A DNA stretch of 64,000 nucleotides, from UHGV virus genome UHGV-1363143, one strand, 5' to 3'. The stretch comes from a virus. The stretch's first letter is position 1. Each line of letters starts with the position of its first letter. Position numbers and translations under genes: made by a program. Positions 5,540 through 36,359 of this stretch are shown piece after piece. Under the pieces are notes generated by a model. That model was not told the origin of the DNA. It saw nothing but the letters and a program-made list of their open reading frames with translations, and searched no databases.

Positions 5540-5545
5540 TCATTT

Positions 5546-5571: not shown

Positions 5572-5603
5572 TTAACATAATAAAACATTAAGGAGTGAAA
5601 TAA

Positions 5604-6266: not shown

Positions 6267-6306
6267 ACTCTGCGTGAAATAATGTAATTGAATAAGTAAT
6301 ATAAGG

Positions 6307-6342
6307 GAGAAGAGTGCGAAAGCATATCTTCTCTTTTTTATT
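6307..6342 (+). terminator. Rho-independent terminator after the tube gene.
   Basis: The stem is GAGAAGA ... TCTTCTC, followed by TTTTTTATT. Confidence 0.6.
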
Positions 6343-6361
6343 ATACTAAGGAGGAAGAATA

Positions 6362-9103: not shown

Positions 9104-9104
9104 C

Positions 9105-10268: not shown

Positions 10269-10340
10269 TGATATTTAGATAAGTAATAAAACAATAGATG
10301 CAACTTAAACATCATTTAAATATAAGAGGAGGAACTTAAA

Positions 10341-10697: not shown

Positions 10698-10712
10698 GGC
10701 TGGTGAACTCCA

Positions 10713-11546
10713 ATGAAAATAACCAATGAAAAAAACTATAATCAGCCTAATGGCCAAATAGATTATATGTCATTAATAAATGATTTACAAGATGAATATG
10801 GAACTATTTACTGGAACACATTAGATGGTGAAATTTTTATTTATAGACCTCTTGGTAGATTGGAGTACAGACAATTAATTAATGCAGATATTACTGATAT
10901 AGAAAAAGAAGATACAGTTTGTAAGGCGTGCTTATTGCACCCTACAGACTTTGACTTTGATAACTGTCCAGCTGGCATACCAAAGCAATTACATGATTTA
11001 ATACTTAAGAATTCTTTTTTAGATTCTTTAGAATCAAAGAAACTCATAGTTGCTTACCATAGGTCTGAGATGGCAGAATTTGATAATCAGATAACTTGTA
11101 TAATTAATGAGGCATTTCCTAATATTGATATTGAAGAAATAGAAAGTTGGGATATGGCCAAGACTGCAAAATACCTTTCTAGAGCAGAATGGAAACTTAA
11201 TGTATTAAGGCAAATACCTATAGATTATGATACATCTAATAAAATGATGGAAGATGAATGGGTAATGCAGCATTCTAAAGGTAATGAAGAAATAAATGAA
11301 GTGGATAATATAGAACCAGAAGATAAAACACGACCTCAACATGAATTCAAAGTAGAAACATTAGAAGAAAGACAAGCTAGAATGAAGAAAGAAGGACCTA
11401 GACGAAAAACTCCTGAAGAACTAGCAGAGTTAAAACGCAGGTTCCCAGAAATCAAATGGGATTATGAAGTAGATCCTAATGAAAACATTGATAATATGAA
11501 AGATTCGTTAGATGTTACATCAGTAGCATTAAGACCAGGTTTCTAA
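10713..11546 (+). CDS. Hypothetical protein (277 aa), possibly the second tail-assembly chaperone.
   Basis: It sits directly upstream of the tape-measure gene. It has a charged C-terminus. Confidence 0.35.
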   Translation: MKITNEKNYNQPNGQIDYMSLINDLQDEYGTIYWNTLDGEIFIYRPLGRLEYRQLINADITDIEKEDTVCKACLLHPTDFDFDNCPAGIPKQLHDLILKNSFLDSLESKKLIVAYHRSEMAEFDNQITCIINEAFPNIDIEEIESWDMAKTAKYLSRAEWKLNVLRQIPIDYDTSNKMMEDEWVMQHSKGNEEINEVDNIEPEDKTRPQHEFKVETLEERQARMKKEGPRRKTPEELAELKRRFPEIKWDYEVDPNENIDNMKDSLDVTSVALRPGF

Positions 11547-17500: not shown

Positions 17501-17810
17501 GACTATCGAAAATGAAGGAATGCTTTTAAGTGATTTTGGAATATATGAATCTCAAAGCAATGAGCCATCGGCAATAATGGCTCCAACAGTTGGAAGATTT
17601 GATAGTGCAAATACTAGCGGTCTTGGATTACAAGCTAGACTTCAAGGTGCATTAAATGGAGCAGGATTAATGGGAGTTAAAGTTAGTGTAAGTCCAACAT
17701 CGGCTAACGGGATAGAAGTAATGGCGAACATAACAAACGCTGCAAAAATTACAGAATATAAAGTTAGGGAAGGCATAAATAAAGTAGTCGGAACAAGATT
17801 GTTTTATTAA
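11574..17810 (+). CDS. Tail tape-measure-like protein (2078 aa).
   Basis: Its position after the tube and chaperone genes supports the call. It has a long alpha-helical charged N-terminal two-thirds. A cluster of Gly/Ala-rich hydrophobic segments lies at nt 16330..16815 (GIALGAWVLAEQ, AFAGSMMAAIPTGLMG, AIFGAGVKPGVG, MIAGYGL, AIFTVAGMAL, GAIAGATTGLLISAI), typical of tape-measure proteins. Confidence 0.55.
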   Translation: MSRLNDEDQHSFGKATAVLTGMVGAAAFHRLGGAKAIAKGVPKLTRFASKLMDDVAEMKLKDYDAEGISRLYKSHIADDNSTWKSLKNLSDEKIKLGVTGQKPVAVILNMLEIQANSRDTMRKVFNANYADEVVGKLDKKYKIIDDEFKDKLDDLTRHVIEKDDLTLFTDKDGVVTRNSDLIKDFIDPDEFHLGEQEDEFFKDLIGAIENKENAFKEYVENHKDEDGTLDLVNNIKEQLTGKSFAEAFGVSGDESIIDNTIKQSRGLTFRDYVDNLDKFDDQIMNLGGDNYISLKDEIKKFVEENEEIKDVLIDAKNLKIDKSGNIIDFQEVDELRKGFLEKLAGTLPGKLAKVTDFLSVEEAGAINFFQKGKANPLANNDGTNKGKDNIIQILNKYYKIDKNNNLSHMSELDDMYSRSNKHGTVPRMLGKMFGTESEYEAINKIAKKLDIGTTTERTILDDLSKEGGIVGKYARSVTGVERYNVIDKMLDASLAESDAIAYRKNLKNVNQIFSHIAKAPNMKTLAKMENVVTNDMSKDILQALMTNDQEEMVSTLSKYTKQLRNKDLKSLIKTGASNRENAARMLSIKSDRITDAKNIMKYKDMIKREAFKEVLISETIDEVSGSVNHNRMLIKLRQAGISGSSYENAKNLGHWATLQMKGKLFNNDAKEKGLEAIKEANNDVLELLTSIRKKDTIPVNAEYVKDFRSTVDKIRDNYSELTTRTTERNIKAKKIRAQATNDMMIMRKAYTPSSYVKDMIKDMNDITKMKANTKKFGMQFIAGKDNPEFVTSYTMIPYFFSQRLTEPFANYGLSFSSKNMKSTPDMWKAIMMKRVLPAAAGITAFNYLNYEAKNLTGTSITGAMAQGIANVDLGLRKIADITGAGKLLEAERRLNPISQYWLGEDYQNSAERKDYYENGYDEVRKGRWWAFGSASEFRGSKIAYYQPNFVKRANSDWKDIGIYGSSKEKWKHSWIPTPRHPFAPIRRALDPYWLERKNYNDRPYLETAPLFSTGTPWGAVLNPTVGQIVKPIRKMHRDETRRGLVDPRTLIRERNERLKAKAQDKQHGNLIQISKDGISNVSYTPSALADPDKAMITLRAGNGKIQSVDYNGLDYTEGIGHISEGGIPVDNPAGNNGAFYVGRNASAEPKTGLIEAFETTALGSFISNGVRKFISPVETLRVTNEGIKGKAAATDGTVIQQANLAKMPFRQATQRMTTKQEEADLLLTTSKHDFINDTLFSAKQLSGIYGFLGGLIYSDDKKKVRPESAEKMSSFKRSFWDANVGGLGGGIMEISRRFFPHDDHAWTDINPIRNTMPEWMPTRFQTGDPYTKVPKGEMRLPGKGYESIHKLRSDEYGRYGALDRMRILGDIAPWSEEYKLWRDIASKSITDEKGKREIQDIKKRVEKQSRSHEFYNYKFLGNPTEINTETIESVEGTKITTTSGKQYSMAGIKLGKNTDINSHLAAGMKVQVEHLKKDKGIDGSISAAVYVNGENINQKLVNSGEAKSDTSTAMGAKALTGQFSQFYGAAMEAIAHAPIPFVHNKVMKIDTPLESYKNERVYGTPYSTWDHPIKGFIMPSFQKDWARGPVGQGIALGAWVLAEQTWKNSSKTSEALKRIGINLSETGVNRLASTIFNVANPGAFAGSMMAAIPTGLMGNSEGIKGLFSSAIFGAGVKPGVGRNGARLGATAMIAGYGLTRSDKPIESTAIFTVAGMALSKQLNHKAFNTKQGAIAGATTGLLISAIRNPRFNKDKMFGKYTPESTKKRWDIDEYYDRLEYIKYKGLYEKAARKARIWEGTNIKKIINANEYQRGINKKKIEKLNNRLDKVSNSKLEDNRKAEIIEKINQQKYRLSTSEQTFRAGKYTKAAIAYKQAAESTIYGLKEDATSQQVMRAIPKGDKDFFMEFAKEKNKKKQDEILKYVSPYQRRALQIAWGRKKIDKVEDNDDYFKGHFMPGVFWAGWSPQVDMEHVKMKTIENEGMLLSDFGIYESQSNEPSAIMAPTVGRFDSANTSGLGLQARLQGALNGAGLMGVKVSVSPTSANGIEVMANITNAAKITEYKVREGINKVVGTRLFY

Positions 17811-18647: not shown

Positions 18648-21600
18648 GTGAGATCTCGTATTAATGTATTTGAGCACAATAAAAAAATTGAAAATAGAAT
18701 AAAATCAAGAGAAGCCATAGTCAAAGAAGAGTTCGGTGGCAAAAGCGGAGAGGCTTTAGTTGAAGAAGTTAATAAGAGAATGGCTATGGCATATATAATG
18801 GACAATGATTTTAAAAAGAAATATATAGAGTTCGGAAAAGACTCTGTTATATTAGGATCAAAATATGTAGATGACGCTGTTAATAAATATGCTCCTATAA
18901 ATGGCATTAAACAAACTTATGATGATATAAGACCTATGTTTAATTTTGTTAACAATATAAGCAATCATCTTAAATCAAAACAGACAGGTAATGAGCTTAT
19001 ACTTAATGCTATAGAATTAAACAATGGAATGAACTACAGTAAGATTTCCACTAAAGCAAATATGTCAGTAACTTCATTAAATAAGGCATATGATAATTTT
19101 AAAAAATCTGAAGAGTTCTTTGTATTTGACACTGAAACATTATCAGGTATGGGCAAAACAGGATATAACGAACTAGATAGATTACAAGAAATAGCATTCC
19201 GTAAGTTTAAAAAGGTTGATGGAAAGCTAGTAGAAGATGAAGCTTCAAGGGTGGAAACACTTATAGGAATAACTCAAAAGCAATACGATGAATATATGGA
19301 TATCTTCGTAAATAACTTTAATGAAAATGGATGGCAAGGAAATCAAAAGTACGAAGTAATCGCAGGAAGATTTGCAAAGCTTGGACATAAAGATACTGTT
19401 ATTAAAAATGCTGGTAAAGGATTAGCTATAACAGAAAGTTTTGCTAGTGATGCTAGTGAGAACTTAATGGATGTAAGCAATATTAAACGAGGGCTTGAAA
19501 GAGCTCTAGAAATAGGAAAAAGACAAGATGCTGAAAGACTATCTAATGGCTTAATGGTATGGGAAGATCAGTTATTAAGAAGTGTAAAAATATTTAATGA
19601 AAACTTTGTAGCTGGATTTAATAGTACAAACTTTGACTTTGAAAAGATGAATCAATCTATTGGTACTGTATGGAACAGTATGAATTCAACTCAAAAAGCA
19701 GAGTATAGCAAAATATTAAATCTTAAAAACGGAACAGTTCCTGTAATCAATCCTATTGAAGGAAATTATTTAGACTTTAGAGATGTTGTTAGAACTGCTG
19801 CTGAATCAATAGGTAAAACAGGCATCTATGGTAATGATAATGAAAAACTTAAAACAATTAAAGGTATAGGGAAGACATTATTACAACAAGAATCTCTTGG
19901 TGAAGTATTTGCTAAAGATGCAATGTTCACAGCAGCTCATACAGCAGGTGCCGACGTTACAACGTTAGCTCACCTTATGGGAGGCAAGGAATTAAACGGA
20001 GCTTCTTTATTTGATGAATTAATGACTACAATAAATAAGAATGCTTCAGCCTTAACAGGAAAAGTAGATTACAATTCTGTATTAATGGCCACTCAAGGAG
20101 AGTTTTTCAATGACTTTACTAGAAAGGGTGCTCTTAACTTTACAACAGATAGATCTAGTGGTGCGATAAGGACGTTCAATGGAATGTCACTAGATGCAAA
20201 TGGAGATGTTAGAGATTTAGGTAAATTCGGTAAAGCGACAGGATTAAAGAAAAATGTAGCTTATAAGATTGGATTTATGGGCGAAATGGATATGTCTGAA
20301 GACTGGATTAAAAAGATGTCAGGTATACACCAAGACTACGCACAAGGAAAGTTGTGGGTTGCGAAATTTAATCCATTAATAGATAAAACAATAGCTGGAG
20401 ATAATTCTATTTTAGAAGATCCTACTACATATTTCTTTACTTCTAAAGAAGCAATGGAGGGATTTGTATCAAGCCATTTTGCACATGTAGGTAATATAGG
20501 CACTGATGGTAAAATAGAAGATTTAGCTGATCCTGCAGCTAGAGCTGAGGTTCAAAAGCTATTTGGAGTTCATACAATCAAAGATGGAAAAGTTAGTGAA
20601 GCCGCAACACAAACAGCTAGTGAATTAGTATCCAATGGAACTATACAAGCAATGAATGATCCAGCTGCTAGAATGATAAGAGAAAATGAATACACAAAAG
20701 CTATAAAGTTTCAGAGAATGCAAGATTACCTAAAAAAGAATGGTGCTACAACTATTGATGAACAAAAGAAGATGTTATCTTTAGCAACTGCAGAGAATGT
20801 TGCTGGAGGAAAAACATTAAAGATTAAACATGATGTTTTATCAATATTAGGATTCCAAGATAAAGAGGTTAATAAGCAAGTCCTATATTCAAGTACTTTA
20901 AATAATACTATTAATAGTTATGGATATATGGCTTCAAAAAGAAATGTTATAGATTCTCTTGTTGAAGCTGTTAAGGAATATGGAAATATAGGCTCAGAAC
21001 AGCAACAGTTTATATATGATTCATTAATGAGAGGGTTAAGAGAAGATGCAGCTAATGCTATAGCTTCAGGAGATTTAGAGAAAGAAGCACTAATCAATGG
21101 TTCAAGTGAACTAAAGGTATATGCAAAGGACCTAGATTATTTTGAATTTGATATGCCAGAGGGCTACTTTAAAAACACTAATGCAAAAGCTATGCCTGGA
21201 GAAATAGATAATGTACTAAGGGTTAATCTTAAGTCAGAAAAAGAATATTCTCTAGTCAATGATTTATTAAGAAGACGTAGAGGAAATGATGATAGGCTTA
21301 AATCTCCTAATGCAAGACAAGCATATGGAATGCAAGAACTTAGAAATTTTGCTAATACAGTAAACTCATTAGAAGAGTATAAAGGAATATTTGATGATAT
21401 CTTATATGGCAAGCCAGTTAATGAACTTAAGAATTTAGCTAATTTAAAGAAGTATGAAAAGAGTTTATTAAAAGATGAATTGTATTCTTCATTTGATAAT
21501 GTAGTTAATAATATAGTTAACAATAATGAAGAAGTTATTGAATCAAGAGCTTCTTTAGAACAACTTAGAAAAAGAAGGATAGAACTTCAAAACTTTATAA

Positions 21601-24600
21601 ATGAAAATAACGGAAAAAGAAATTCATTAAGACCTGAACTTGAAGTTCTAAGTAATGAATTTAAAAATACTATATTACCAGATGATCAGTGGCAATCATT
21701 ACTTCCAGATGATAAGAGAATAATTAAAGAAAAGCAAAAAGACATAATGCTTAAACAGAAGGAATTACTTTCAACATTTGATAATAGTGATTTATTTACT
21801 GAACTTAGTGAAATTGAAAGTAACATGGAAGAACAATACAACCATCTATTTAATGTATTGGATATCTCAAGATCAAATGCAAAAACTTCTTTAAAAGAAA
21901 TGTTTTCAACAAAAATTAATAATAAAAATAAAGAGATTGATGAAGTATTCAATAAGTTAAATGAAGTTATCTCTACTGTTCCAATTGAAGCTGATATAAG
22001 TGTTGATGCTATGTCAGAAAAGCTTATTCAAGCAATGAAAAACTTTAGAGAAAATAATCCTTCTTCAGGTTTTTCAAAAGACAGAGTAATACAAAATGTC
22101 TTAGATAGTGATGAATTACTATCAACACTTGATGATGATTTTGTAAAGAAGTCTATTGAAAATACTAAGAGCAATTTGCCTAATCTAAAGCTTATTGATG
22201 TAAACAATAAAAATGAAGTTAAGTCATATGCAGAAGAGATCGTAGATAGCATATTAATGCCTACAGTAAAGGACTCGGATGGAAATTTACTTAAGAATAT
22301 AGATGATATAGCAACATTCGCTCAAAAAACATATGGCTACAATGAAACTACAACTAAGCTATTTAAATATAATCTTCAAATGCAAAGAGAAGAACATGTC
22401 AAAGGTATCTCTGATCTTGTAACAGCAGTTGGAAGAAAAAATGGATTTATAACTTATGATAAGTCAACCTCTGAATTGGGAATGAGAATAGGTGGCGAAA
22501 CATATAACCTATGGGGTATGCCTAAGACTAGAATTGAAAATGGTACTTTATTTATTGCGAATGGACAAGGCAATTTTGCTTCAGGATTTAAACTGGATGT
22601 TCAAGATGCAATAGATGGTAAGAGACTTAATCGAGGCAAGGTTGCAATAAAATCTGATTTAGCAGATTCATACAAGGAATTAAGATCCCTTAATTATAGG
22701 TTAGATAGAGCTGCTGCTAGAGGAGATGATTTAGGTAAAACTGTTATTGGTGCAGTTAGCAACGTAGCAAGTAAAGTAAGAGAATTATCTGCTTTAGGTT
22801 CAATGACAACTAAAGATTCATATGCATGGCAAGGAATGGATTTAAGCGAAGGTATTTTGTCAATGCCATACATGTTGGATGAGATTAAATCATATGACGG
22901 TTGGCAAGACGACGATTTTATAAAAATCTTAGAAAGAAATAAGAATAGGATACTTAATGGGAATATAACTTCAGAAGTTCAAGAAGCATATGCTAAAAAT
23001 AAACAAGATGTAGTAAAAATGCTTTTAGGTATTGGTGCAGGAAATGAAAATAAGCAAAGAACTGTTCAAGAGTTTATTGCAGGTAATATAAGCAATTATA
23101 CTAAGGATGGGAAACTAGCTGTAGGTAGAGCAATGGTAGGAGAATATTCTCCAATGGCTATGACAGAATGGGACAATCCATCACGTCCACCAATAAGTTC
23201 TGCTGATGAAATTTTGTTCAACAAAAAGAAATTAGATGATATAATCAATGATCCTACAAAAGGATTGAAAGGTAGAATAGAAACTGGCTCTAGAATAGTT
23301 TCTACTAGACAAGGTGCTGGAAGAAAATTTGATGGAATAGGCGAAGTGGCAACTGGAGTTACATTTAAAAATGCTAATATTTCAGAAAAGAAATTCAAGG
23401 AAATTATAAGTGATAAGTTCGAAGAAGAACTAGAAAAAGTAAATCCTAACTCTAGTAGAGCGGAATGGCTAGAATCACTTAGAAGACAAATGAGCGGACT
23501 TAACTTGACTGAACAAGGTAAGCTTATTGATGGTAGAGTTGCAGATGCTTTATTATCTGAAACAGAAACGCAAAGAATTAATACATTTAAGAATTTTAGT
23601 AGAGACATGAAAAACAATACTAAAATTATGAACGATAGAATAAAAAAGGCAATGCCTACTATAGAGATTGCTCAGTCAGGAGAAATTGTATTCAAGCTTG
23701 GTAAGAAGGATTACGTAAAACGTGGCGACGCATTATTTGCTATAGATGGATATGGAGATGTTCTTGATACTATAGGAGTAAAAGAAGACGCTGGATTATT
23801 TGGGTTTGGATATAATTCTAAGGGAAGTAATCTTGCAGTTGGAGAAGATGAAATATCTAAACTTCTTAACAAGAATAAGAATAGAATACTAAATGCAGAT
23901 GGAACAATAAATCAAGATAAGGCTATGCGATTATTAAATGAATCTTTTGATAGTGGATTCTATGTAAAGAATGCGTTTGTAAAAGGATACAATAAGGGTA
24001 CAATCGAGTATGCTGAAAAAGGTATGTACGATGCATTGGTATCTGGAGCAGGTACTTTAGATAACAGAGTTGATAAGTTACTTGAAGCTGTCGGTATGAA
24101 AGAAGCTAGTGGTAAGGTTTTAAGTGAAGATTTTATAGATTTAATAGCTGAAAAATATTCTGGATTGACCGCAAAACAAAGAAGTGATTTAGGCTTTGCA
24201 GGTGGTTGGAACCAAGTTAAAAATGCTATTAATAAAGAAAAGTTTGCTAAAACTGACTTCATTAGAGAGATAGATGCATTTAAAGATATAGTTGCATTTA
24301 CTAATGACAATGTAATTAAACATGGTAATGCAGGTATCGCAATGAAAGGACTTATTAATAACATTACTGAAAAGTATATGATTGATGATAAGTTATCATT
24401 TGAAGAAGCTTCCAAGAAAACTGTTGATATACTAAACAAGGAAATTATTATAGATAAAAGTACTGGTGAAAAAGGCAAAATATTTAATGGAGTAGATATT
24501 TCTTTTAAAGACGGTAAGATTCATATTGGTGAAATAAAAGATACACTGAATGCAACTATAGACAAATACGCAGTACAAGCTTTAACTGATGAACTAGGGT

Positions 24601-27530
24601 TATACGATAAGAATAGTCCATTTGCTATTCGTGATAAAAATGGAAATGTAGTTGGATACACAACTACTTTAACTACTTCATTTAATGAAGACTTCTCTGG
24701 AACTTCTAGATCATCAATAGAAAAAGATAAAATAAAGAAAAACTTAGATAACAAAAAGGAAAAGTTAAGGGCATTAAATCCTGAAACTGATTCAGTTAGT
24801 TACAATGCTTTAAATGAGGAAATTAAAAACTTAGAGCATTCATATAGGGCTGCTAAGAACTATGATAAAACAATGACAATATCATCAAGAGAAACTGACA
24901 TGATGAGCCTATATGAATATGATGAAAGTAAAATGGCGAAGGTCAGAGAAAAGCTTGGTGGCGATTATAACAAAATATATAAGAGAATGTTAGATGAAGA
25001 TGGTCGTATTAATTCAGAATACACTGGCAGAGCAATACACCAAGGGTTCCTTGATGACATAGAAGACAAGGCATTTGAACAAGCTGTTGAGAATAAAAAA
25101 TATTTTGACAGTGCAAAAAATGCTATAACATACAATAATAGACCAGGACTAGGTACAGACTTCATAAAAGATAATAACTTTGAAGAAGTTAAAATAGGCG
25201 ATTTAGTAATTCCAAATGGACATGACACAAAGTTCCTTGAATCGGATCCAAACAGATCATTTGGAAGAAACTTATTGGTAGACACAGGGCTTTCAGGAAA
25301 TGATAGATATGTAGCAATTTCTGCTAACAACTATTCAATAACTGGAGACGATGTAAATACAGATGAAGTTCAAAAATCTTTAGCCAAATTACAAAGAGCT
25401 AGTAAAACTCTTGAAGATGGAAGAAAGGGAATTAATGGTGCATTAGATAATGGCACTACTGTTAAAGATCTAGAAGCAAGAGTTAGAAATGCAGCTGATG
25501 AATTAAAAGAATCTGTAGTTGGTTCTATGAGAAAAACTCTTGGTGGACTTGATTCAGTTCAACTTGGAGGATATTCATATGAAAAAGCTACTATGGCTAT
25601 GCTGGATCCAGATAGTCTAAAGAAAGCTATGGAAAATGGTAACTTCGATAAGAAAGCCTGGAATGGATATAAAATGTATGGAGTCTCTAAGATTAATGGA
25701 AAGACTCTTGGTGAATGGGCAAGCCAAGGAGTTCACTATGATGCATCATGGCATGGTAAACAATATTTTAAAGACCTAGGATACTTTGATAAAGCTGTAT
25801 GGAAAGATAAGTATAAAATGAAGTCTGTAGACGAAATGATAGAATATCTTAGGGTTAATGGTACAGCAGGAATAGAACTGCGTACACCTACGATTAAAGA
25901 AGGTTCTATGTCTGTTACAAGACAATATCTTGACACAGATTTAAAGGATGGTCAGGCTAAAGCTACAGCCTCTCTTGTTTTTGGAAGAAATCAGGACCAT
26001 GATGGAGATAGTGTTATACAAGCTGAATTAAGACATAAAGACTGGACATTAGCAGACTATGAAATAGGAATGAAAAATAACCCTAATAATGTTCCTGAAG
26101 ATGTAAAAAAATACTATGAAGAATTAAATGCTGCCCAAACATATAGAGCTAGTACAATAAACAATAAGATATATGAAAACGTAGCAGTTCCAACATACAA
26201 TGACGATGTAAAAAATGCATTAAAAAACGCAAATGTTAACAAAGTACTTGCAAGTGAAAAAGTAAACCTTAATGGACGATATATTACTCCATTCTCTCAG
26301 GCTGAAACAGATACAGCATTAAGAAATGATTATCTTAAAAAGTATGGAGAAATAGAAGAGTCATTAATCAGTAAACTAGGAAAAGAGAAATACAAATCTC
26401 TTAATGTTATAGAAAGAGCAAAAGAAATAGATACTCATATTGCTGGTTTAGCTGATGACGTTAAAGATGGATATAGAACTGCAGCTAGATTCGTCGAAAT
26501 TTATGAAAAAGATATGTCAGCAGTAATGTCTAAAGTAGCTGGTAAAGCTTCTATCGGATATATTAATACACCACTAGCCTCATTAAGAAGGGCAGCAGCA
26601 GTAGAAGGATTTTCTGGAGATCAACGTAAGTATATCCAAGCAGCAGCAGATATACTAGAACAAAATATCATATCTAAGAAGCATAGTACAGATTATGCTA
26701 TATCTTTAGCTCAGACTTTTAGATCTAGTCTTAATGATATGTTTGAAGGGAAAATATCTGGTGCTAATAATGTAAATAGGTTGATAAGAGAAAATTATTC
26801 TGGAGCTATGGTAGAAAAGCTTAAAATATTTAATGATATTGACTTTTCAGGAGTAGATGATGAAGAAATCCTAAATAGAATAACTTCAACTATATCAGAT
26901 GTTGGTAGAGCAGCTAGTAATAATAGTAATTTTAGAAACATCATAAAAGCAGAGAACGCTAAAAATTCACTAACAGCAAGCAATATGGAAGATGTATTAT
27001 CAGGAATATCTGAAAGAAGTACAGGACATAACAAATCTCTCGCAAGAGCTAAATACAATGGAGGATCTACATCATCAGTAAATGCTTCAATTGATATGGA
27101 TGGCTTTGAATCTTCGGCAAAGAAAGTCATTTCATCTGCTTCTGAAGTTATAGATGATATGGCTAGAAGTGTAGGCGGTAGTGGATTAGCAAAAGCTGCC
27201 TTAGGTATAGCTGGAGCAATTATGGCTGCAGGTTATATTGGAGGTAATCCAACAATAGCACCTGGAACAGAAGCTCAAGATTTAGATAGTTATGATTCCC
27301 TACAAGACAAGGACTTATCTATACAACAACTCCCTCAGGGAACTGGACAAGGATATGTAATAAACATTAATGCTCAAAGTGCTAGAGGCCAAGATCATGC
27401 AATTAAAGCAATTCAACAAGCTATGCAATCAAGTGTGACTACTGATATTAATATAGCTATGAATGTAAATGATAAGACAAACACTATAAATAGTAGATAT
27501 ATAGACAAACTATTGTCTGGTGCAATATAG
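18648..27530 (+). CDS. Giant virion or ejected-protein candidate (2960 aa). It has an N-terminal DEDDh 3'-5' exonuclease-like domain and a C-terminal multisubunit-RNAP beta-prime-like double-psi beta-barrel catalytic motif. It starts at a GTG with a GAGGTG RBS.
   Basis: The Exo I-like motif is FVFDTETLSG (about nt 19120). The Exo II-like motif is AGFNSTNFDFEKM. The Exo III-like motif is AAHTAGADVTTLAHL (about nt 19930). At about nt 25870..26010, ELRTPTIKEG...LKDGQAKATASLVFGRNQDHDGDSV aligns with E. coli beta-prime NRAPTLHRL...[26 protein letters not shown], including the spacing. Confidence 0.55.
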   Translation: MRSRINVFEHNKKIENRIKSREAIVKEEFGGKSGEALVEEVNKRMAMAYIMDNDFKKKYIEFGKDSVILGSKYVDDAVNKYAPINGIKQTYDDIRPMFNFVNNISNHLKSKQTGNELILNAIELNNGMNYSKISTKANMSVTSLNKAYDNFKKSEEFFVFDTETLSGMGKTGYNELDRLQEIAFRKFKKVDGKLVEDEASRVETLIGITQKQYDEYMDIFVNNFNENGWQGNQKYEVIAGRFAKLGHKDTVIKNAGKGLAITESFASDASENLMDVSNIKRGLERALEIGKRQDAERLSNGLMVWEDQLLRSVKIFNENFVAGFNSTNFDFEKMNQSIGTVWNSMNSTQKAEYSKILNLKNGTVPVINPIEGNYLDFRDVVRTAAESIGKTGIYGNDNEKLKTIKGIGKTLLQQESLGEVFAKDAMFTAAHTAGADVTTLAHLMGGKELNGASLFDELMTTINKNASALTGKVDYNSVLMATQGEFFNDFTRKGALNFTTDRSSGAIRTFNGMSLDANGDVRDLGKFGKATGLKKNVAYKIGFMGEMDMSEDWIKKMSGIHQDYAQGKLWVAKFNPLIDKTIAGDNSILEDPTTYFFTSKEAMEGFVSSHFAHVGNIGTDGKIEDLADPAARAEVQKLFGVHTIKDGKVSEAATQTASELVSNGTIQAMNDPAARMIRENEYTKAIKFQRMQDYLKKNGATTIDEQKKMLSLATAENVAGGKTLKIKHDVLSILGFQDKEVNKQVLYSSTLNNTINSYGYMASKRNVIDSLVEAVKEYGNIGSEQQQFIYDSLMRGLREDAANAIASGDLEKEALINGSSELKVYAKDLDYFEFDMPEGYFKNTNAKAMPGEIDNVLRVNLKSEKEYSLVNDLLRRRRGNDDRLKSPNARQAYGMQELRNFANTVNSLEEYKGIFDDILYGKPVNELKNLANLKKYEKSLLKDELYSSFDNVVNNIVNNNEEVIESRASLEQLRKRRIELQNFINENNGKRNSLRPELEVLSNEFKNTILPDDQWQSLLPDDKRIIKEKQKDIMLKQKELLSTFDNSDLFTELSEIESNMEEQYNHLFNVLDISRSNAKTSLKEMFSTKINNKNKEIDEVFNKLNEVISTVPIEADISVDAMSEKLIQAMKNFRENNPSSGFSKDRVIQNVLDSDELLSTLDDDFVKKSIENTKSNLPNLKLIDVNNKNEVKSYAEEIVDSILMPTVKDSDGNLLKNIDDIATFAQKTYGYNETTTKLFKYNLQMQREEHVKGISDLVTAVGRKNGFITYDKSTSELGMRIGGETYNLWGMPKTRIENGTLFIANGQGNFASGFKLDVQDAIDGKRLNRGKVAIKSDLADSYKELRSLNYRLDRAAARGDDLGKTVIGAVSNVASKVRELSALGSMTTKDSYAWQGMDLSEGILSMPYMLDEIKSYDGWQDDDFIKILERNKNRILNGNITSEVQEAYAKNKQDVVKMLLGIGAGNENKQRTVQEFIAGNISNYTKDGKLAVGRAMVGEYSPMAMTEWDNPSRPPISSADEILFNKKKLDDIINDPTKGLKGRIETGSRIVSTRQGAGRKFDGIGEVATGVTFKNANISEKKFKEIISDKFEEELEKVNPNSSRAEWLESLRRQMSGLNLTEQGKLIDGRVADALLSETETQRINTFKNFSRDMKNNTKIMNDRIKKAMPTIEIAQSGEIVFKLGKKDYVKRGDALFAIDGYGDVLDTIGVKEDAGLFGFGYNSKGSNLAVGEDEISKLLNKNKNRILNADGTINQDKAMRLLNESFDSGFYVKNAFVKGYNKGTIEYAEKGMYDALVSGAGTLDNRVDKLLEAVGMKEASGKVLSEDFIDLIAEKYSGLTAKQRSDLGFAGGWNQVKNAINKEKFAKTDFIREIDAFKDIVAFTNDNVIKHGNAGIAMKGLINNITEKYMIDDKLSFEEASKKTVDILNKEIIIDKSTGEKGKIFNGVDISFKDGKIHIGEIKDTLNATIDKYAVQALTDELGLYDKNSPFAIRDKNGNVVGYTTTLTTSFNEDFSGTSRSSIEKDKIKKNLDNKKEKLRALNPETDSVSYNALNEEIKNLEHSYRAAKNYDKTMTISSRETDMMSLYEYDESKMAKVREKLGGDYNKIYKRMLDEDGRINSEYTGRAIHQGFLDDIEDKAFEQAVENKKYFDSAKNAITYNNRPGLGTDFIKDNNFEEVKIGDLVIPNGHDTKFLESDPNRSFGRNLLVDTGLSGNDRYVAISANNYSITGDDVNTDEVQKSLAKLQRASKTLEDGRKGINGALDNGTTVKDLEARVRNAADELKESVVGSMRKTLGGLDSVQLGGYSYEKATMAMLDPDSLKKAMENGNFDKKAWNGYKMYGVSKINGKTLGEWASQGVHYDASWHGKQYFKDLGYFDKAVWKDKYKMKSVDEMIEYLRVNGTAGIELRTPTIKEGSMSVTRQYLDTDLKDGQAKATASLVFGRNQDHDGDSVIQAELRHKDWTLADYEIGMKNNPNNVPEDVKKYYEELNAAQTYRASTINNKIYENVAVPTYNDDVKNALKNANVNKVLASEKVNLNGRYITPFSQAETDTALRNDYLKKYGEIEESLISKLGKEKYKSLNVIERAKEIDTHIAGLADDVKDGYRTAARFVEIYEKDMSAVMSKVAGKASIGYINTPLASLRRAAAVEGFSGDQRKYIQAAADILEQNIISKKHSTDYAISLAQTFRSSLNDMFEGKISGANNVNRLIRENYSGAMVEKLKIFNDIDFSGVDDEEILNRITSTISDVGRAASNNSNFRNIIKAENAKNSLTASNMEDVLSGISERSTGHNKSLARAKYNGGSTSSVNASIDMDGFESSAKKVISSASEVIDDMARSVGGSGLAKAALGIAGAIMAAGYIGGNPTIAPGTEAQDLDSYDSLQDKDLSIQQLPQGTGQGYVININAQSARGQDHAIKAIQQAMQSSVTTDINIAMNVNDKTNTINSRYIDKLLSGAI
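19100..20000 (+). other. DEDDh (DnaQ/RNase T-like) exonuclease motif set inside the 2960-aa protein.
   Basis: It has the D-x-E motif, a second Asp motif and H-x4-D with T-A/L context. The order and spacing are consistent with the family. Confidence 0.55.
25870..26040 (+). other. Beta-prime-like DPBB NADFDGD-type metal-binding motif (NQDHDGD) with an upstream R-x-P-T element.
   Basis: The motif is read directly from the translation. It has 5/7 identity to NADFDGD plus conserved flanking elements at the correct distance. Confidence 0.6.
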
Positions 27531-27671: not shown

Positions 27672-30600
27672 ATGGCGAAATTTTACAGTTCAGTTGATGA
27701 AAAGTTTTATAAGACACCTGATATGGGCGATTATTATGATGAAGATTTAATAGAAGAAATGATGACAAGTATAGATCCTAATAATCCTAAGAATGCAACG
27801 TATTATGTAGAAACACCTTTTAGTACTGCGTTAGGATATCACCCAGATTATGAGGCTTTTGTATTAAAAGCAGATGCCATAATTAAAAAGAATGATTACA
27901 AATATGGCGGAACTACTGGGGCAGAAAAAGAATATTTAAATGATATTGATGCAGATACTATATCTTTCTATCTAGATTCAGTGGATGATGGAGGAATGCC
28001 TTTTGAATTGAACGGAGAAAAATATAAAGGCTTCAAAGATTATGTATATAACCAGACTGATTTTATAACATTCAAACAAAAAGTTTTTAAGATAAGAACT
28101 ATAGGAATAAATGCTCCTGAAGTACCTCACTATAAAATAGTCCCTATGTCAGATGAAGATGCTAAAACTAAACTTAAAGAGGTTAGCATTTCTGAAATGA
28201 AAAGGGGAGGGTATATATATGAAATAAATAAACCTAGAACTCAGGAAAAATATCCTTTTATTTTTATAGACAATAAATGGAGAGAAGTAGTCAATGGCAG
28301 AAATGTAGACGGAACATATGGATCAAGACAACACCCATTTAAAGATTCTGAAGAATATGATGGTGCAAGTAAGAATGAAGATGATAAATCTAGATATTAC
28401 ACTTGCTTATTAAAAGATGAACAAAGTACTTTAGATATGAATGGAGATGTAAACTTAGGACTACTTGCTACAAGAGAAGCACTTGATTTACTTGAATCAG
28501 CACAAGATATGAGAATAGTAGTCGATGCAAAGCAATTACAAACATCTGCTAATTATTCAGAGATACAAAAAGTATTAATGGAAGGATGGAGCGAAGATAA
28601 TTCTCTATGGGAAGTTATAAAGGCTATGTATATAAAGACTTTTGGTGAAAGTAAAACTACTGTTAAGTATGGTGGATTTGGTACTTTCGGACAAGACTCC
28701 TATAAACGTTTCCTTGGTGCAATATATGTAAAGGCTGCAATTAATGGTGCTCCTACTGCATGGATAAACTTAGCTAAGTATGTTAGGTCCAAAGTAGGGG
28801 ATAGAGTCCAATTAATGAAAGGATTAGATCCAGTATCTCAAGACAATGGAAATGGAGTTTCAGATGCATTTAAAGTATGGTCTTATGATAACTCAAATAT
28901 GCTTATTGCAGATGGATTCTATAATATCAGTCAAGCTGATTTTGATGATAGAAGGCAAATTCAAAGAGAAATTACAGGATTAGATTTTTCCCAATATAGA
29001 GACTATACAGTTATGATAGGTGACTGTTTATTTATGGTACCACCAACGTCAATAAGAGTTGTAAACCAAGTTGATAGTAATAGAGTACCCCTTTTAAGAA
29101 GTAAGGGCTCAATAACAAAAACTAAGCCACATAACGATAGATTGATAGAAATGACATTATACTTCAATGGAGAAGAAGGTATCAATGGAGTTCCTATTAA
29201 AAAGCAACTACCAAAACAAAAAGGAACTAATCAATATGAAACTTATTATATGAATGGTCTTAGAAGTTTAATAGCTATGTTTAGATATACTCCATTTATG
29301 CCAGTAGAAAATAAGTACTTAAATGATGTTCTTGGAATAGAAGCAGTATCTCTTGCTAATCTACAAATACAAACAATGCCAATGTATCCAAAATGTTTGG
29401 CGGTCACTTTAACTCTTCAACAATTCAATTACAGAATATATCTTAATGAATTACCATTACCTGATCCTGAAGAAGGACAAGACTTCAATTATAACATGTA
29501 TGCTAGAACTATCAATTACGGAATAATGAGATATTACTATCAAAGAGCAATTCAAGCAGGGGAAGCTATTAAAGATTTAAGTACTAGCAGTCAAGAGTAT
29601 ATTGAATCAACTATGGGAAGTAAAACAAAATTAATCCCTATGGAATTCAAGGATCAAAACATAAGATTCCAAATTCTTGATTCTAATTGGTTAGATAAAA
29701 TGAAATCAATTAAAGAACTTGCTACTAAACAACCTATACAGCAGACACAAGCATTAAATCAAAAAACACTTGATTGGGCCAATAGAGTCGGCATAAGTAT
29801 GTATCACATTATAAATGCTGTAAATAACATTGAAGCTTGTGCATCACCATCATTCAATAGTCTTGAAAATCCTATATTATGGTTGCAAGAAAAACTACTA
29901 ACAAACCAAACTTGTCCTCATTTGGTTGAGATTGGCAAAGGTGTGGAATCTGGTGAAGGAATATATGATTTTAGCTTTGTATTTGATACAGATTCATTGA
30001 CTAAAGAAGAATTACAAAATCTAATGATAGCAATTACTAATGAATTAAATATAAAGAAAAATGATGCAGATAGACTTATATTTGAGGACGGCATTATAAC
30101 TATAAGTGCTAAATTATCTAAGGACGTTCATACAGATGGAGAAACAGATTACAAATGTGACACAAGCACAGATGACTATGCAGTAGCACAATTCTTTGCA
30201 TTTAGGTCAGGCATGTTTAACGAAGGGGAACTGTCTGATGATATCAATAATGATAATTGGGATGGATTTTCTACTGTAGTGAATGAAGCATTCTTTGAAA
30301 ATATGAAAGATAATGCTATAGATGAAGAATCTTTATTGAGTGCAAAATTCAAGGATTATCCTTTAGATATTATTGTTCAACAATTTAGTATCTCAATGGG
30401 AAATACCTTATCGAATACTAAACTTAAGATACATGAAGGTTATGCTCCACAATATGCAGGGGGACAAGATACTGTATTAGACTTTGTATTTCACACTACA
30501 GATGAGAGCACAGTAACACTACTTAACAATATGCAACAAATGGCTGCTGAACAATTAATAAAATATAGACAAATAATTAATTGTTGGCCAATTAGAATAG

Positions 30601-33600
30601 ATTCGGAAATGACTAGACTTTGTGGCATTCATGAAGTAGTTATAGAATCCGTAGATATTTCTACAGTACCAATGCAACCAGGACTATTTGCAATACAATG
30701 TAGAGCAATATCTGTAGATAGAACTATGAGAAATAGAGAAGCATTAAGAAGAATAGATGCCATGAATAATGCAGGTGCAATTAATCCAGAAGCAATGAGT
30801 TCTTGGGTATATAAGACTTATTTTGATTTAAATAAAACTTTATCAAAAGCAGAAGTATATCCAGATTTAGAATTACCTACAATAGATGAATTAGAAAGCA
30901 CAGGTTATAAATTTATAAGATATGTAAGAAACAGAGAAATGAGAACATATCCAGATCCTGATTTCTATTTTGTGTATGGATATGCGTATTCATCTCAAAT
31001 GTTAAGAAAATCAATTATAGAATATTTTGACAAGCAAATTACGAATGATAAAGGAGAGGCTAGAGCTGTAATTACTCAAGCTAAAACTTCATATGTTCAA
31101 AGCGGAACCAGTCAAGAAACACTTGCTTCCATGAATGATAATGATCCTGATAATGTAATTTATTATGACCATCAAAATAAAGAATTAGAAGGAAAATATA
31201 ATGAAGCTGTAAAAAAAGATATTGAATATATAAACAGTACAAGACAGCAGTCTACAGAGGAAGATCAAAAATATGAAGAAAAAATAAGAGCAGCAGAAGA
31301 ACTGTATAATCAGAGCACATATTTTGAAGATCAACTTATGGCACTAAGTCCTAAAAGCTGGGATATATGTTCATCTATTAAATGTACTTTACCTGAAACA
31401 CTTCCTGATGGAGAAGAAGGAACATTAGAAGCCAATATTAAAAAGGACTTAAAAGATGTGAGCTCTAAAATAATTGAAATTATAGATGAAGCCCTTAGTA
31501 AACCTATAGACGCTACTGAGTATTCGAACTCATCAATACGTGTAGGATATGATTATCATAAAACTCTTAGAAAAGAAGTCAAGAAATTTGTTGAGAATGA
31601 AACAGAAAAAAACTCAGTATGGCAAAAAATAATATCTGAATTTGGAACTTCAATAGACTCAAAAACTAAGAAAAACATAAGAGCAATATATGAGGCAGCA
31701 GCAATGGCTCTTAGTGGAAACTCTGAATTTTCAAAAGATATGAATAAAGATAACTACTGTGCAAGAGCTTATTTCTTTAATAACAATGTAGACACTAATT
31801 ACTCAACTGCAGAAGATGACTATACTTCAAATAAAATTAAATGGTTTCCAAATAGTATAATTATAGATAAAAATACAGGAGATATATTTAACGCAAATAA
31901 TATAGATAATGCTATAGCAAATGGAATAACATTTGGACCTTATCAAGTAAGAAAGTATGATGCCGAGTTTTTAAAAGATTTTTATTCAGATAAATCAATT
32001 ACTTTTTCTGATATGGATTTCTTAGATCCTTATTACAACAAGGCATTACACAAAGATAAATTTGGAAAAGATATAGATAATGATGAATATGTAGAATATA
32101 AATCAAAAATGATTAATTCAACTGGTTATGCTATAGAAGCATTCCATAGAGTAGTGTTGGCATGGGTAAAAAAATTAATCCAAGACAACATCTATATCAG
32201 TTTTTATGATATTAGAAGAGATGATATCTCTAAAGAGTTGAATGGATTAATTGAAGAAGTAACAGGCGAATCAGCATACAATAATGTTGGTTATTTACCT
32301 GGAGATTATACTCAATCAGCTAATTCAACAAACTATTCCGCTTACAATATTCAAGAATATCAAAAGATAGAAAAAGAAAAAAAAGTAAATAAAATAGTCC
32401 AACCTTTAACTGATAAAGGTAAGGATGTAGCAGATATAGTTAAAACATATGAAGGATCAATATTGACTGGAAAGATATTCTTACCTGTTCTATGTGCTGT
32501 AATTCATGGAGATGATATGATTTATGGAAGAATAAAACAAAAGGATATTGGAACATTAAAAGTCAAAACTCGTCAATGTAGTTTACCTTTTAATGCCTCA
32601 GATGAAGTTTCAGATGGAGAAAGAAATTTCAGAAAAATGATTAGAGGTCTATCAGCAACTGATCCTGAGGTAATGAATGGACTAGAAGCAATAGCTAGTG
32701 AAAGCTACACTAAGCTAGAATCTGCATTGATAGACAGAAATCAAAAGCTATGGCTAAAAGCTTCAGAAGATCCTTCAGCATGGGTGTTACATTCATTCTA
32801 TGACATGGTTACAAAAAATAAAAGAGGAAGAATGGCTAGAGCATTCCCTACTTATTATATGATGCTAATAGATGAAGGAAGAGAAATAGGATACTGGAAA
32901 CTTCATGATAACTTCTATAATATGAATTCTATTGCAGAGATAGAAGTTACTAAGTCAAGAAAAATGCCAGCAGATACAGCTAATATAGTAATGACAAATA
33001 TGTTTAAAACTTTCTCTACTGAGGATGAAGATGTAAGAGTGAATTATGAACATAACGTAAGAGATGTATTTAATAGTATCTTCTCTCCTAATGTTTATTT
33101 TGAAGAAGAAGAAGCTAAGAGAATGGCTCAAATGAATATTCATAGAGCAACTATTAAACCAGGAGTAAGAATTCATTTAAGAATGGGATACTCAGGAGAT
33201 GCGTCAGAGTTACCTATATTGTTTAATGGTGTTGTTACAGAAGCAAGCACTGGAGAACTTATAGAAATCACAGCTCAAAGCGACGGACATGAAATAGTTA
33301 ATTCTCAAGTTTTTGCTGGCACAACTGCTGAAGATGCTGCAGACATAAAAAATGAATCTTCAATGTTTAAATGGTTTTATAACTTCTTTACTGAAGGTGC
33401 TACACCAAAGACATTAATAAGAAACATATTTACTGCTAAGAGTGGTTTCTGGGGCAAGATGGCTAATAAGTTTACTAATGGTAGATTCTTTAATGATAAT
33501 ATGTTTGGAATAACTCACTTTGGAGAAATAGACTATAAAGCTATTCACAAGGATGGAGAAATAATGCAAAACATATACGAGGCTGAAGGAAGAATGCCTT

Positions 33601-36359
33601 GGCAAAAAGAACCTACACCAGGATCAATGATGGATGAACATGTTATGGCTGAAGCTCCATCATTCACAATAGAGCTTAAAGATAAAAGTGTTTGGGATGT
33701 ATTAAATATATGTGCCAGCTCATCATTAGAGTTTATAACTGGAGTAGCTCCATTTGGAATAAGAAGCACTATATTTTATGGAAGACCACATTATTACTAT
33801 GCATATGATTATGCAATATCCGAAGAAGGAATGATTACTGAAAAACGTAAGCCATTCCAACAATATCATATCATTGATAGTTATTCAGATATTATAGGAA
33901 ATAACATAAAGGCTTCAGGTGCGGATATAAAAACTGTAGCAGTACCGATGTATAAAGGTCCTGGAAAAGCAAATAAAATTATAGAAAAGAAATGTAATCC
34001 AATATGGGCGGATTGGGATATATATCCTGAATTCCAAAAAACTATGGTAGTCAACACAGGACTTACTTGGAAAGCAAACAAAATGGGAGCCTTACTTGTC
34101 AATAAATTTAGAGATGAAGTTACAAAGAGCGGTGGTCAAAAGATTGCTTGGAGAATGGGAGCAACAGCTCTTAAAAATTCATTTAAAGATATGTATCAAG
34201 GAGAAGTCATAATAATTGGAGATACCAGCATAAAACCTTTGGATAAAGTTTTCTTACACGATGTTTACGAAAACATGAATGGAGCTGTAGAAGTAGAGGC
34301 AGTAGTCCATAGATTGAGTCCTGAGACAGGATTTACTTCATCAGTATTCGCAGACTGTATTAGTTGTGTAGACAGTAGATATGAAGAAATAGGAAGAATG
34401 TGGACATCTCAAATTGCGCACCAAATAGTTCTGGCTAAGAGTATATTCTATTTAAGTAGTTTGGCATTTGGGAATAGCACTAGACCAATGTTGAATGTAA
34501 TGGCTAGGACTGTCAACAAAGGTGCTTACAAAACAGCAGAAATGGCTAATAAAGCTATGGAGTTCATAGGAAAAGATGAATTGATTAAATACGGAAGTAT
34601 GGAAAAATGGTCAGATGCATTTTATAGTACAATGAATCTTTCATCTCAGGAAGTTGCTGTATGGAATAAAGTTAGCCAGCTCGGAGGAATTAAAAAGAAA
34701 ATATCAGTATTAGATATAAATAATATAGATTCAGCCTCAGATATTATTGATAACCTTGGAAACATAGTAAAAGCAACCGATGGATTTAGTCCTTCAGATG
34801 TAGCTGATACATTAGAAACTGCCTTAAAGAATGGATCTATCAAAAAGAAAGATATTAGTAATGTAGAGGCAACTATAAAAACATTAAGAGAAATAAAAAT
34901 AGATACTGATGGATTAACATCAAGTATTAAGCACTTATCATCATCAGTAGTTTCACAATTAGAATCGGTATCAGGTTTAGCGGATGAAGCTAAAGATAGC
35001 CTTAGGTATTTAAAAAGTATTCAGAACATGGAAAAAATAGATATTAAAAAGGCAATGGAATCCCTAGATAGTGTTAAAGATCTAGTTGATTTAAAGGATG
35101 ATATAAAGCAGTCTGCAAAGATAATAGGAGAATATGGTGACGATGTATTAAAAGCTATATCAAAAGCAGACGATATAGTCAAAGGTTCCAAGGTAGCCTC
35201 AGCTGTTACTGCTACCGTAACAACAGCTGGTGTAATATCTTCAGCATTATTAATAGCTGCTGAAATGGCTATAACATATGTCATAGAAAAAAATATATAC
35301 AACTGGATTGAAAACAGAATGGCTAGTTTTAATGTACTGACTGTTTACCCTCTTAAAAAGAATGGAGTAGTTCATGTAGCTGGCATAGATGGCCATAAGG
35401 GATTAGTTCATGGAAGTCCAACTTGGGAACAAGCCGGTCCTATTGATTCATTCATTAACTGGGTGTTTAAAGAAAGAGACACTAAATTCTATAAATTCTT
35501 AGATATATTTGTGTTTTCTGACGAAATGAAAGCTATTGCTGAAACTTATAAGAAAGATAATAAGTTGGGAAGTTATGCAGATGAAAAAGAGCAAACAGTA
35601 ACAGGATTATTAAAAAGCATAGCAGAAGGACAAGCAAGTTCTTATTCAAATTACAAAGCTATGGTTCATACGGAACGTATTACAGATATAAATGCTGCTA
35701 ATGCAAAATACACATATAAGAAAACCAGAGTAAAGTCTGATATATTAAATGATATACCTAATCACCCAGCAGTATTAAATGAGTTAGTTCCTATTGATGG
35801 AAGTAATGAGGCATTAGCTGAATATTTCTCTCCATTAAAAAGTCCTAGATTAAAAACTATACATTTGAGTCATACAGAATATGAGGGTGATTTAGACAAC
35901 AAGATTAGTTACGAAGAATTCAAAATAGATAATATTAAGAGTTACAATGGTGTAATTAGAGGAATTAGACTTTCAGATAACACAGTAGATATTCCATTCT
36001 TAAGACCTGATGCTTTTCAATTATTTAAAAGATTAATAGATCTTATAACAATAAAATCAGGTAATAAGGGATATGGAGATAACGAAAATAGTACAATCTG
36101 GTTCAAGTCAGGTACTATAGTTAATGATAACTCTTGGAGTTCAACTGGATATGTATTTAGGTTTGAAGTTACGAATATCAGTGATGATATAGTAAACCAA
36201 GCATTTGAGGATGCAGCTAAAGAACTTAGAGAAATATTTATTGATGAAAATAAACAAGACATTATAAACATATTCCAATATAGAAAAGTTAAAAATAGCA
36301 ATGCATACGAAGTGTTTGTATGCCCTAGAGATGAATACTTTAAACTACAATTAGATTAA
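27672..36359 (+). CDS. Second giant protein (2895 aa). It has an N-terminal SNase/thermonuclease-like domain, and a C-terminal coiled-coil plus hydrophobic helix.
   Basis: An AAGGGAGTG RBS precedes it. IDADT...FKIRTIGINAPEV...EALDLLESAQDMRIVVD...FLGAIYVKA...WINLAKYVRSKVG parallels staphylococcal nuclease IDGDT...FRLLLVDTPE...KIEVEFD...GLAYIY...ALVRQGLAKVAY. The C-terminal region (about nt 34700..35300) is a long coiled-coil followed by VASAVTATVTTAGVISSALLIAAEMAITYVI. Confidence 0.5.
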   Translation: MAKFYSSVDEKFYKTPDMGDYYDEDLIEEMMTSIDPNNPKNATYYVETPFSTALGYHPDYEAFVLKADAIIKKNDYKYGGTTGAEKEYLNDIDADTISFYLDSVDDGGMPFELNGEKYKGFKDYVYNQTDFITFKQKVFKIRTIGINAPEVPHYKIVPMSDEDAKTKLKEVSISEMKRGGYIYEINKPRTQEKYPFIFIDNKWREVVNGRNVDGTYGSRQHPFKDSEEYDGASKNEDDKSRYYTCLLKDEQSTLDMNGDVNLGLLATREALDLLESAQDMRIVVDAKQLQTSANYSEIQKVLMEGWSEDNSLWEVIKAMYIKTFGESKTTVKYGGFGTFGQDSYKRFLGAIYVKAAINGAPTAWINLAKYVRSKVGDRVQLMKGLDPVSQDNGNGVSDAFKVWSYDNSNMLIADGFYNISQADFDDRRQIQREITGLDFSQYRDYTVMIGDCLFMVPPTSIRVVNQVDSNRVPLLRSKGSITKTKPHNDRLIEMTLYFNGEEGINGVPIKKQLPKQKGTNQYETYYMNGLRSLIAMFRYTPFMPVENKYLNDVLGIEAVSLANLQIQTMPMYPKCLAVTLTLQQFNYRIYLNELPLPDPEEGQDFNYNMYARTINYGIMRYYYQRAIQAGEAIKDLSTSSQEYIESTMGSKTKLIPMEFKDQNIRFQILDSNWLDKMKSIKELATKQPIQQTQALNQKTLDWANRVGISMYHIINAVNNIEACASPSFNSLENPILWLQEKLLTNQTCPHLVEIGKGVESGEGIYDFSFVFDTDSLTKEELQNLMIAITNELNIKKNDADRLIFEDGIITISAKLSKDVHTDGETDYKCDTSTDDYAVAQFFAFRSGMFNEGELSDDINNDNWDGFSTVVNEAFFENMKDNAIDEESLLSAKFKDYPLDIIVQQFSISMGNTLSNTKLKIHEGYAPQYAGGQDTVLDFVFHTTDESTVTLLNNMQQMAAEQLIKYRQIINCWPIRIDSEMTRLCGIHEVVIESVDISTVPMQPGLFAIQCRAISVDRTMRNREALRRIDAMNNAGAINPEAMSSWVYKTYFDLNKTLSKAEVYPDLELPTIDELESTGYKFIRYVRNREMRTYPDPDFYFVYGYAYSSQMLRKSIIEYFDKQITNDKGEARAVITQAKTSYVQSGTSQETLASMNDNDPDNVIYYDHQNKELEGKYNEAVKKDIEYINSTRQQSTEEDQKYEEKIRAAEELYNQSTYFEDQLMALSPKSWDICSSIKCTLPETLPDGEEGTLEANIKKDLKDVSSKIIEIIDEALSKPIDATEYSNSSIRVGYDYHKTLRKEVKKFVENETEKNSVWQKIISEFGTSIDSKTKKNIRAIYEAAAMALSGNSEFSKDMNKDNYCARAYFFNNNVDTNYSTAEDDYTSNKIKWFPNSIIIDKNTGDIFNANNIDNAIANGITFGPYQVRKYDAEFLKDFYSDKSITFSDMDFLDPYYNKALHKDKFGKDIDNDEYVEYKSKMINSTGYAIEAFHRVVLAWVKKLIQDNIYISFYDIRRDDISKELNGLIEEVTGESAYNNVGYLPGDYTQSANSTNYSAYNIQEYQKIEKEKKVNKIVQPLTDKGKDVADIVKTYEGSILTGKIFLPVLCAVIHGDDMIYGRIKQKDIGTLKVKTRQCSLPFNASDEVSDGERNFRKMIRGLSATDPEVMNGLEAIASESYTKLESALIDRNQKLWLKASEDPSAWVLHSFYDMVTKNKRGRMARAFPTYYMMLIDEGREIGYWKLHDNFYNMNSIAEIEVTKSRKMPADTANIVMTNMFKTFSTEDEDVRVNYEHNVRDVFNSIFSPNVYFEEEEAKRMAQMNIHRATIKPGVRIHLRMGYSGDASELPILFNGVVTEASTGELIEITAQSDGHEIVNSQVFAGTTAEDAADIKNESSMFKWFYNFFTEGATPKTLIRNIFTAKSGFWGKMANKFTNGRFFNDNMFGITHFGEIDYKAIHKDGEIMQNIYEAEGRMPWQKEPTPGSMMDEHVMAEAPSFTIELKDKSVWDVLNICASSSLEFITGVAPFGIRSTIFYGRPHYYYAYDYAISEEGMITEKRKPFQQYHIIDSYSDIIGNNIKASGADIKTVAVPMYKGPGKANKIIEKKCNPIWADWDIYPEFQKTMVVNTGLTWKANKMGALLVNKFRDEVTKSGGQKIAWRMGATALKNSFKDMYQGEVIIIGDTSIKPLDKVFLHDVYENMNGAVEVEAVVHRLSPETGFTSSVFADCISCVDSRYEEIGRMWTSQIAHQIVLAKSIFYLSSLAFGNSTRPMLNVMARTVNKGAYKTAEMANKAMEFIGKDELIKYGSMEKWSDAFYSTMNLSSQEVAVWNKVSQLGGIKKKISVLDINNIDSASDIIDNLGNIVKATDGFSPSDVADTLETALKNGSIKKKDISNVEATIKTLREIKIDTDGLTSSIKHLSSSVVSQLESVSGLADEAKDSLRYLKSIQNMEKIDIKKAMESLDSVKDLVDLKDDIKQSAKIIGEYGDDVLKAISKADDIVKGSKVASAVTATVTTAGVISSALLIAAEMAITYVIEKNIYNWIENRMASFNVLTVYPLKKNGVVHVAGIDGHKGLVHGSPTWEQAGPIDSFINWVFKERDTKFYKFLDIFVFSDEMKAIAETYKKDNKLGSYADEKEQTVTGLLKSIAEGQASSYSNYKAMVHTERITDINAANAKYTYKKTRVKSDILNDIPNHPAVLNELVPIDGSNEALAEYFSPLKSPRLKTIHLSHTEYEGDLDNKISYEEFKIDNIKSYNGVIRGIRLSDNTVDIPFLRPDAFQLFKRLIDLITIKSGNKGYGDNENSTIWFKSGTIVNDNSWSSTGYVFRFEVTNISDDIVNQAFEDAAKELREIFIDENKQDIINIFQYRKVKNSNAYEVFVCPRDEYFKLQLD
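27930..28810 (+). other. SNase-like nuclease domain. The Ca-site Asp is replaced by Asn (GINAPE instead of GIDAPE/VDTPE).
   Basis: The motif alignment is as given above, read directly from the translation. Confidence 0.5.

Follow-up and report, generated by a model that had tools for sequence, protein, structure and literature searches.

Does a giant gene in the tail module of an uncultured phage encode an RNA polymerase, and would such an enzyme enter the host through the tail? The question is raised by a 2960-aa protein, ORF2, encoded at 18648..27530 in the 64,000-nt stretch of virus genome UHGV-1363143 analysed here (the window); all features described below lie on the plus strand. ORF2 has a GTG start, its N-terminus MRSRIN is common to it and its homologues, and an identical protein is also encoded on a 238,204-bp contig. 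We consider that its C-terminal half (aa ~1612-2700) is probably the catalytic core of a cell-type single-chain two-barrel RNA polymerase (RNAP), carried within a multidomain virion protein that is either located in the tail lumen or ejected.

The catalytic segment

The two-barrel RNA-polymerase-like core covers aa 1612-2700 (23481..26747). The translation of ORF2 at aa 2410-2461 reads ELRTPTIKEGSMSVTRQYLDTDLKDGQAKATASLVFGRNQDHDGDSVIQAEL, which bears out the motif ELRTPT...(36)...NQDHDGDS that the initial annotation had placed at aa 2410-2455. This DPBB-A catalytic segment (25875..26030) consists of R2412-T-P2414-T, two strands, a helix, and N2448-Q-D2450-H-D2452-G-D2454-S, with R2412 encoded by nt 25881-25883 and D2450 by nt 25995-25997. 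The Mg-binding triad has the N-x-D-x-D-G-D form (NQDHDGD, aa 2448-2454). The count of 36 residues from R to N was correct; the corresponding distance in E. coli RpoC is 33 (R425 to N458). R2412-T-P2414 stands 35 residues ahead of D2450 and satisfies [RK]xPx{20,100}DxDxD, the filter by which Chaban et al. called RNAP polypeptides (PMC10770324, Supplementary Data 4). The (D/E)-G-(K/Q)-A element, which had been counted as part of the same match, did not hold up; it is poorly conserved, with family frequencies of about 0.3-0.5, and its match is therefore to be taken as coincidental.

In 20000 shuffles of the ORF2 protein, D.DGD alone appeared in 9%, and the bare motif is thus weak evidence. N.D.DGD was found in 0.85% of the shuffles, and R.P[ST] located 28-45 residues upstream of D.DGD in 0.02%. 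Conservation argues for the catalytic motif more strongly than these odds. In 15 relatives, with identities as low as 22%, no substitution was seen at R2412, P2414, N2448, D2450, D2452, G2453, D2454, or S2455. Among 129 diverse relatives (representatives of 50% clusters), R2412, P2414, D2450, D2452, and D2454 were conserved at 100% and the Gly of the triad at 95%. Furthermore, the catalytic residues formed invariant columns in an alignment of 69 sequences, whose mean column identity there was 15%. The family to which ORF2 belongs is large, unannotated, and under length constraint: it comprised 205 clusters at 50% identity in a library of 1.84 billion proteins, nearly all members were 2650-3350 aa in length, and the polymerase region was always located at about 1400-2700.

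Fold of the core and candidate partner elements

The initial annotation had looked to a profile search for an RNAP-family match. No significant similarity of ORF2 to RNAP or any other known family was obtained with Pfam (including its RNA_pol domains), PHROGs, PDB, or hhalign against RpoB, RpoC, YonO, and crAss gp66. The best hhalign pairing with RpoC fell exactly on the DPBB-A segment and was not significant (E 0.06-0.26). Homology therefore rests on the fold and the motifs. Phage single-chain two-barrel RNAPs usually lack significant profile similarity to established families (PMC10770324).

A template-free model of the core region was confident (pLDDT 85, pTM 0.81), and its top structural matches were RNAP largest subunits and DPBB domains, the highest-ranked and longest alignments being those with the largest subunits of DNA-dependent RNAPs. 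RNAP beta-prime was the top Foldseek match already for a first, poor model. The modelled fold of the catalytic region is similar to that of RNAP largest subunits, DPBB-A included. Its secondary structure (model numbering) runs from strand 795-800 through RTPT, strands 810-817 and 825-829, helix 830-835, and NQDHDGD to strand 844-849, the same order of elements as in beta-prime NRAPTLH...NADFDGD. Fold and motifs support the reading of this segment as DPBB-A, the barrel that binds Mg in a two-barrel polymerase. For the other of the two barrels sought by structure prediction, a beta-rich domain upstream is a candidate.

The beta-like partner had been suggested to lie upstream in the same protein or in the neighboring giant gene. 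A basic pair, K1783-x7-K1791-G (NKGTIEYAEKG, 23994..24023), sits on a beta hairpin formed by model strands 170-175 and 180-185 within a beta-rich domain. Since its spacing equals that of E. coli beta K1065-x7-K1073-G, the candidate DPBB-B was placed upstream in the same chain, identified by its motif and the model strands. K1783, E1790, and K1791 were conserved at 97-98% in the 129 relatives and invariant in the 69-sequence alignment. A KHxNxG motif (K1891-H1892, 24318..24335), with H1892 conserved at 94% in the 129 relatives and invariant in the 69-sequence alignment, was first read as the beta RHGNKG motif and was set aside in favor of K1783/K1791.

Downstream of DPBB-A, a bridge-helix candidate was assigned at aa 2603-2652 (26454..26603) by position and shape. 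It carries K-x2-G-K-x-S-I-G-x-x-N-x-P-L, with G2637 conserved at 95% and N2640 at 88%, and is modelled as a 35-residue helix (992-1026) carried on as 1029-1041 (model numbering). A helical hairpin follows at aa 2657-2699 (26616..26744; model helices 1046-1068 and 1071-1088) with E-Q-x-x-I-S-x-K-H, in which E2671, S2676, and K2678 are conserved (K2678 at 93-100%). From the model, this hairpin may correspond to the trigger loop. In the predicted model, both candidate elements stand where they are expected after DPBB-A.

The tail-module setting and the ends of the chain

The tail sheath, the tube with its paralogues, and two small chaperone-position genes, recognized by PHROG matches, occupy 2504..11546 in the same order as ORF139-144 of Bacillus phage 0305phi8-36, and three giant genes come next. 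The gene right after the chaperone-position pair is ORF1 (2078 aa, 11574..17810), not ORF2. ORF1, the upstream neighbor of ORF2, is homologous to gp145 of 0305phi8-36 and to CDS0026 of a Moorella phage (blastp E 8e-75 and 3e-84). ORF3 (2895 aa, 27672..36359) is a baseplate hub protein with a cell-wall-degrading region (phrog_20474, E 1e-170) and was matched by tblastn to ORF147 of 0305phi8-36, 'baseplate hub protein', and its relatives. The order sheath, tube, chaperones, first giant, second giant, and hub is kept in distant relatives and parallels 0305phi8-36. ORF2 lies in this tail module, between the genes for the tail tube and the baseplate.

The slot between the ORF1 and ORF3 homologues is held in 0305phi8-36 by gp146, a 'hypothetical tape measure protein'; in the annotation of that record, mass spectrometry identifies both gp145 and gp146 as virion proteins. 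Like ORF2, gp146 has a DxETTG exonuclease motif and a C-terminal hydrophobic segment, and the C-terminal domains of the two proteins are weakly alike (hhalign E 0.011). However, the exonuclease motif lies mid-protein (aa 1223) in gp146 and N-terminally in ORF2. In gp146, DxDxD is absent and nothing similar to the ORF2 polymerase region could be detected; the slot protein of the cultured Moorella relative, CDS0027, has no DxDxD either. Therefore, a virion location is not simply transferable to ORF2 by homology.

The N-terminal domain of ORF2 (aa about 150-445, 19095..19982) appears from its motifs to be DEDDh (DnaQ-like) 3'-5' exonuclease-like. The ExoI D-x-E, the ExoII D, and the ExoIII H-x4-D occur in that order, and D161-x-E163-T, N325...D330, and H431-x4-D436 were invariant in 15 relatives and nearly so in 69. 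The profile matches were weak (DEDDh exonuclease 9mrc, E 0.22; DnaQ ExoI motif, E 0.033 by hhalign). This domain is more than 1100 residues away from the polymerase core. Since its motif is also present in slot proteins of relatives without any polymerase module, the exonuclease is not coupled to the polymerase.

Tape-measure proteins are long and helical with a hydrophobic segment toward the C-terminus, are encoded right behind the tail chaperone pair (the place taken here by ORF1), and typically vary in length through a helical insert. In ORF2, a K/E/N-rich helical insertion of 193 aa (aa 919-1111, 21402..21980) is missing in relatives with 52-84% identity. A hydropathy scan revealed a Gly-rich, transmembrane-like segment at aa 2846-2865 (27183..27242), conserved family-wide in the form GxxLAxGAxGxAA...GGNP. 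It is followed by a C-terminal domain (aa 2899-2956, GYVININA..., 27342..27515) that is kept in all relatives. The helical indel, the transmembrane segment, and the slot annotated as a putative tape measure in 0305phi8-36 are features of ORF2 that may point to a tape measure.

Competing readings and known phage RNA polymerases

The uncultured jumbo phage probably delivers a transcription enzyme of its own by way of the contractile tail, and an ejected virion RNA polymerase is the reading of ORF2 that we favor with some confidence. From gene position we infer packaging and ejection; the activity of the enzyme, its template, its product, and whatever the exonuclease might contribute are likewise proposed by inference. 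In the putative enzyme, the beta-like barrel would contribute two lysines, K1783 and K1791, and about 620 residues on, the beta-prime-like barrel would contribute the R-x-P element and the N-x-D-x-D-G-D magnesium-binding triad, with the bridge-like long helix and then the trigger-loop-like hairpin downstream. The chain would start with the exonuclease-like domain and finish with the transmembrane segment and the small conserved domain. We speculate that the protein is built into the tail or the virion, that sheath contraction drives it out together with the DNA or before it, and that its hydrophobic C-terminus then contacts the membrane. Transcription of the first phage genes by the polymerase module may follow without the host enzyme, as has been shown for P23-45 gp96 and crAss-like gp66. 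A folded core of 120 kDa would have to traverse or occupy the tail tube, which is a point against this reading.

Four other explanations were weighed. The least unlikely of them is that the two-barrel fold serves another chemistry, either as an RNA-dependent RNA polymerase (QDE-1/RDR) or as a PolD-like DNA polymerase/primase with the DEDDh exonuclease as its proofreader or end-processor. However, the highest and longest structural matches were DNA-dependent RNAP largest subunits, the triad has the RNAP form, and the distance of the exonuclease from the core and its occurrence without a polymerase module do not favor such a partnership. Next in likelihood, and also improbable, is an active phage polymerase that is made late and encoded in the tail module by chance. 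0305phi8-36 keeps a YonO-like polymerase outside its tail module (PMC7824862), and none was present in the tail region examined. Nevertheless, the chain of ORF2 that holds the polymerase also includes long helical stretches, a transmembrane tail, and a conserved domain at the C-terminus; the gene is flanked by homologues of gp145, a virion protein, and of gp147, annotated as the baseplate hub, in the same arrangement throughout the 205 clusters; and a late, unpackaged polymerase has no obvious template programme.

Lower again we place a structural tape-measure or tail-lumen protein in which a polymerase-derived domain is non-catalytic and serves in DNA binding, as a pore, or as a tube plug. 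The putative tape-measure slot, the helical length polymorphism, and the transmembrane segment would suit this role, but the Asp triad, the R/P, the two Lys, and the K/H of the trigger-like hairpin are kept at 93-100% over very deep divergence. Such retention of every residue needed for catalysis marks an active site rather than a scaffold. A coincidental NQDHDGD/RTPT match in an unrelated fold is very improbable; the shuffle frequency of D.DGD alone in the Asp-rich ORF2 and the lack of an RNAP-family profile match would allow it, whereas the rarity of the full motif and the 100% conservation of its residues argue against it, and the RNAP largest subunits and DPBB domains topping the matches of the confident model effectively refute it.

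The ejected RNA polymerase proposed here can be compared with known enzymes. The virion RNAP of coliphage N4 (3500 aa, Schitoviridae) has a T7-like right-hand fold and is packaged in a podovirus capsid. It is alike to ORF2 in concept, as a giant RNAP for early transcription that is ejected (putatively so for ORF2), but its fold is unrelated to the two-barrel fold. In contrast to the multisubunit RNAPs of cells and large viruses (beta-prime, Rpb1, and A subunits), ORF2 would hold both barrels in one chain. In the analyses described above, which were not aimed at these parts, neither a sandwich-barrel-hybrid flap nor zinc ribbons nor sigma-binding elements came to light in ORF2. Reportedly, gp66 of phi14:2, a crAss-like phage, is the virion RNA polymerase studied by Drobysheva et al. 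in 2021. Like the putative ORF2 enzyme, this 2180-aa protein (PDB 6VR4, as given in PMC10770324) is a giant single-chain two-barrel RNAP encoded in the middle of three consecutive giant structural genes; ORF2 resembled it neither by sequence nor as its closest structure.

Firmicutes phages are also the source of YonO (SPbeta) and of the YonO-like enzymes from the jumbo phages 0305phi8-36 and Clostridium phage c-st (PMC7824862), which are single-chain two-barrel RNAPs, as ORF2 would be. In YonO, L-R-S-P-H...D-N-D-G-D has a spacing similar to that of ORF2, with 43 residues from R to the first Asp compared to 38. Unlike ORF2, YonO is a free-standing enzyme of about 840 aa whose gene lies elsewhere than in the tail module, and it is not known to be part of the virion. 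Homology to YonO over both barrels was not found, hhalign giving a spurious local match of 86 columns (E 0.06).

The claim that no such polymerase had been described in a tail module was too strong, because Thermus phage P23-45 gp96 is a two-barrel virion RNAP fused to the tape measure (Chaban et al. 2024, PMC10770324; PDB 8H2M, 8H2N) and the phi14:2 enzyme is encoded among three giant structural genes. For a contractile-tailed Firmicutes-type jumbo phage, no described case was found in the literature. No sequence homology between ORF2 and gp96 was detectable. P23-45 is a siphovirus of a Gram-negative-type thermophile, whereas the phage that encodes ORF2 is of the 0305phi8-36 type, a low-GC jumbo phage with a contractile tail. 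In gp96, the polymerase is N-terminal (aa 1-1200) and clamp-less and is followed by a tape measure with a metallopeptidase; in ORF2, it occupies the C-terminal half with an inter-barrel connector of about 620 aa, behind an exonuclease-like N-terminus, and no peptidase was found. If our reading is true, the two-barrel virion RNAP known from P23-45 and crAss extends to contractile-tailed jumbo phages of the Firmicutes type.

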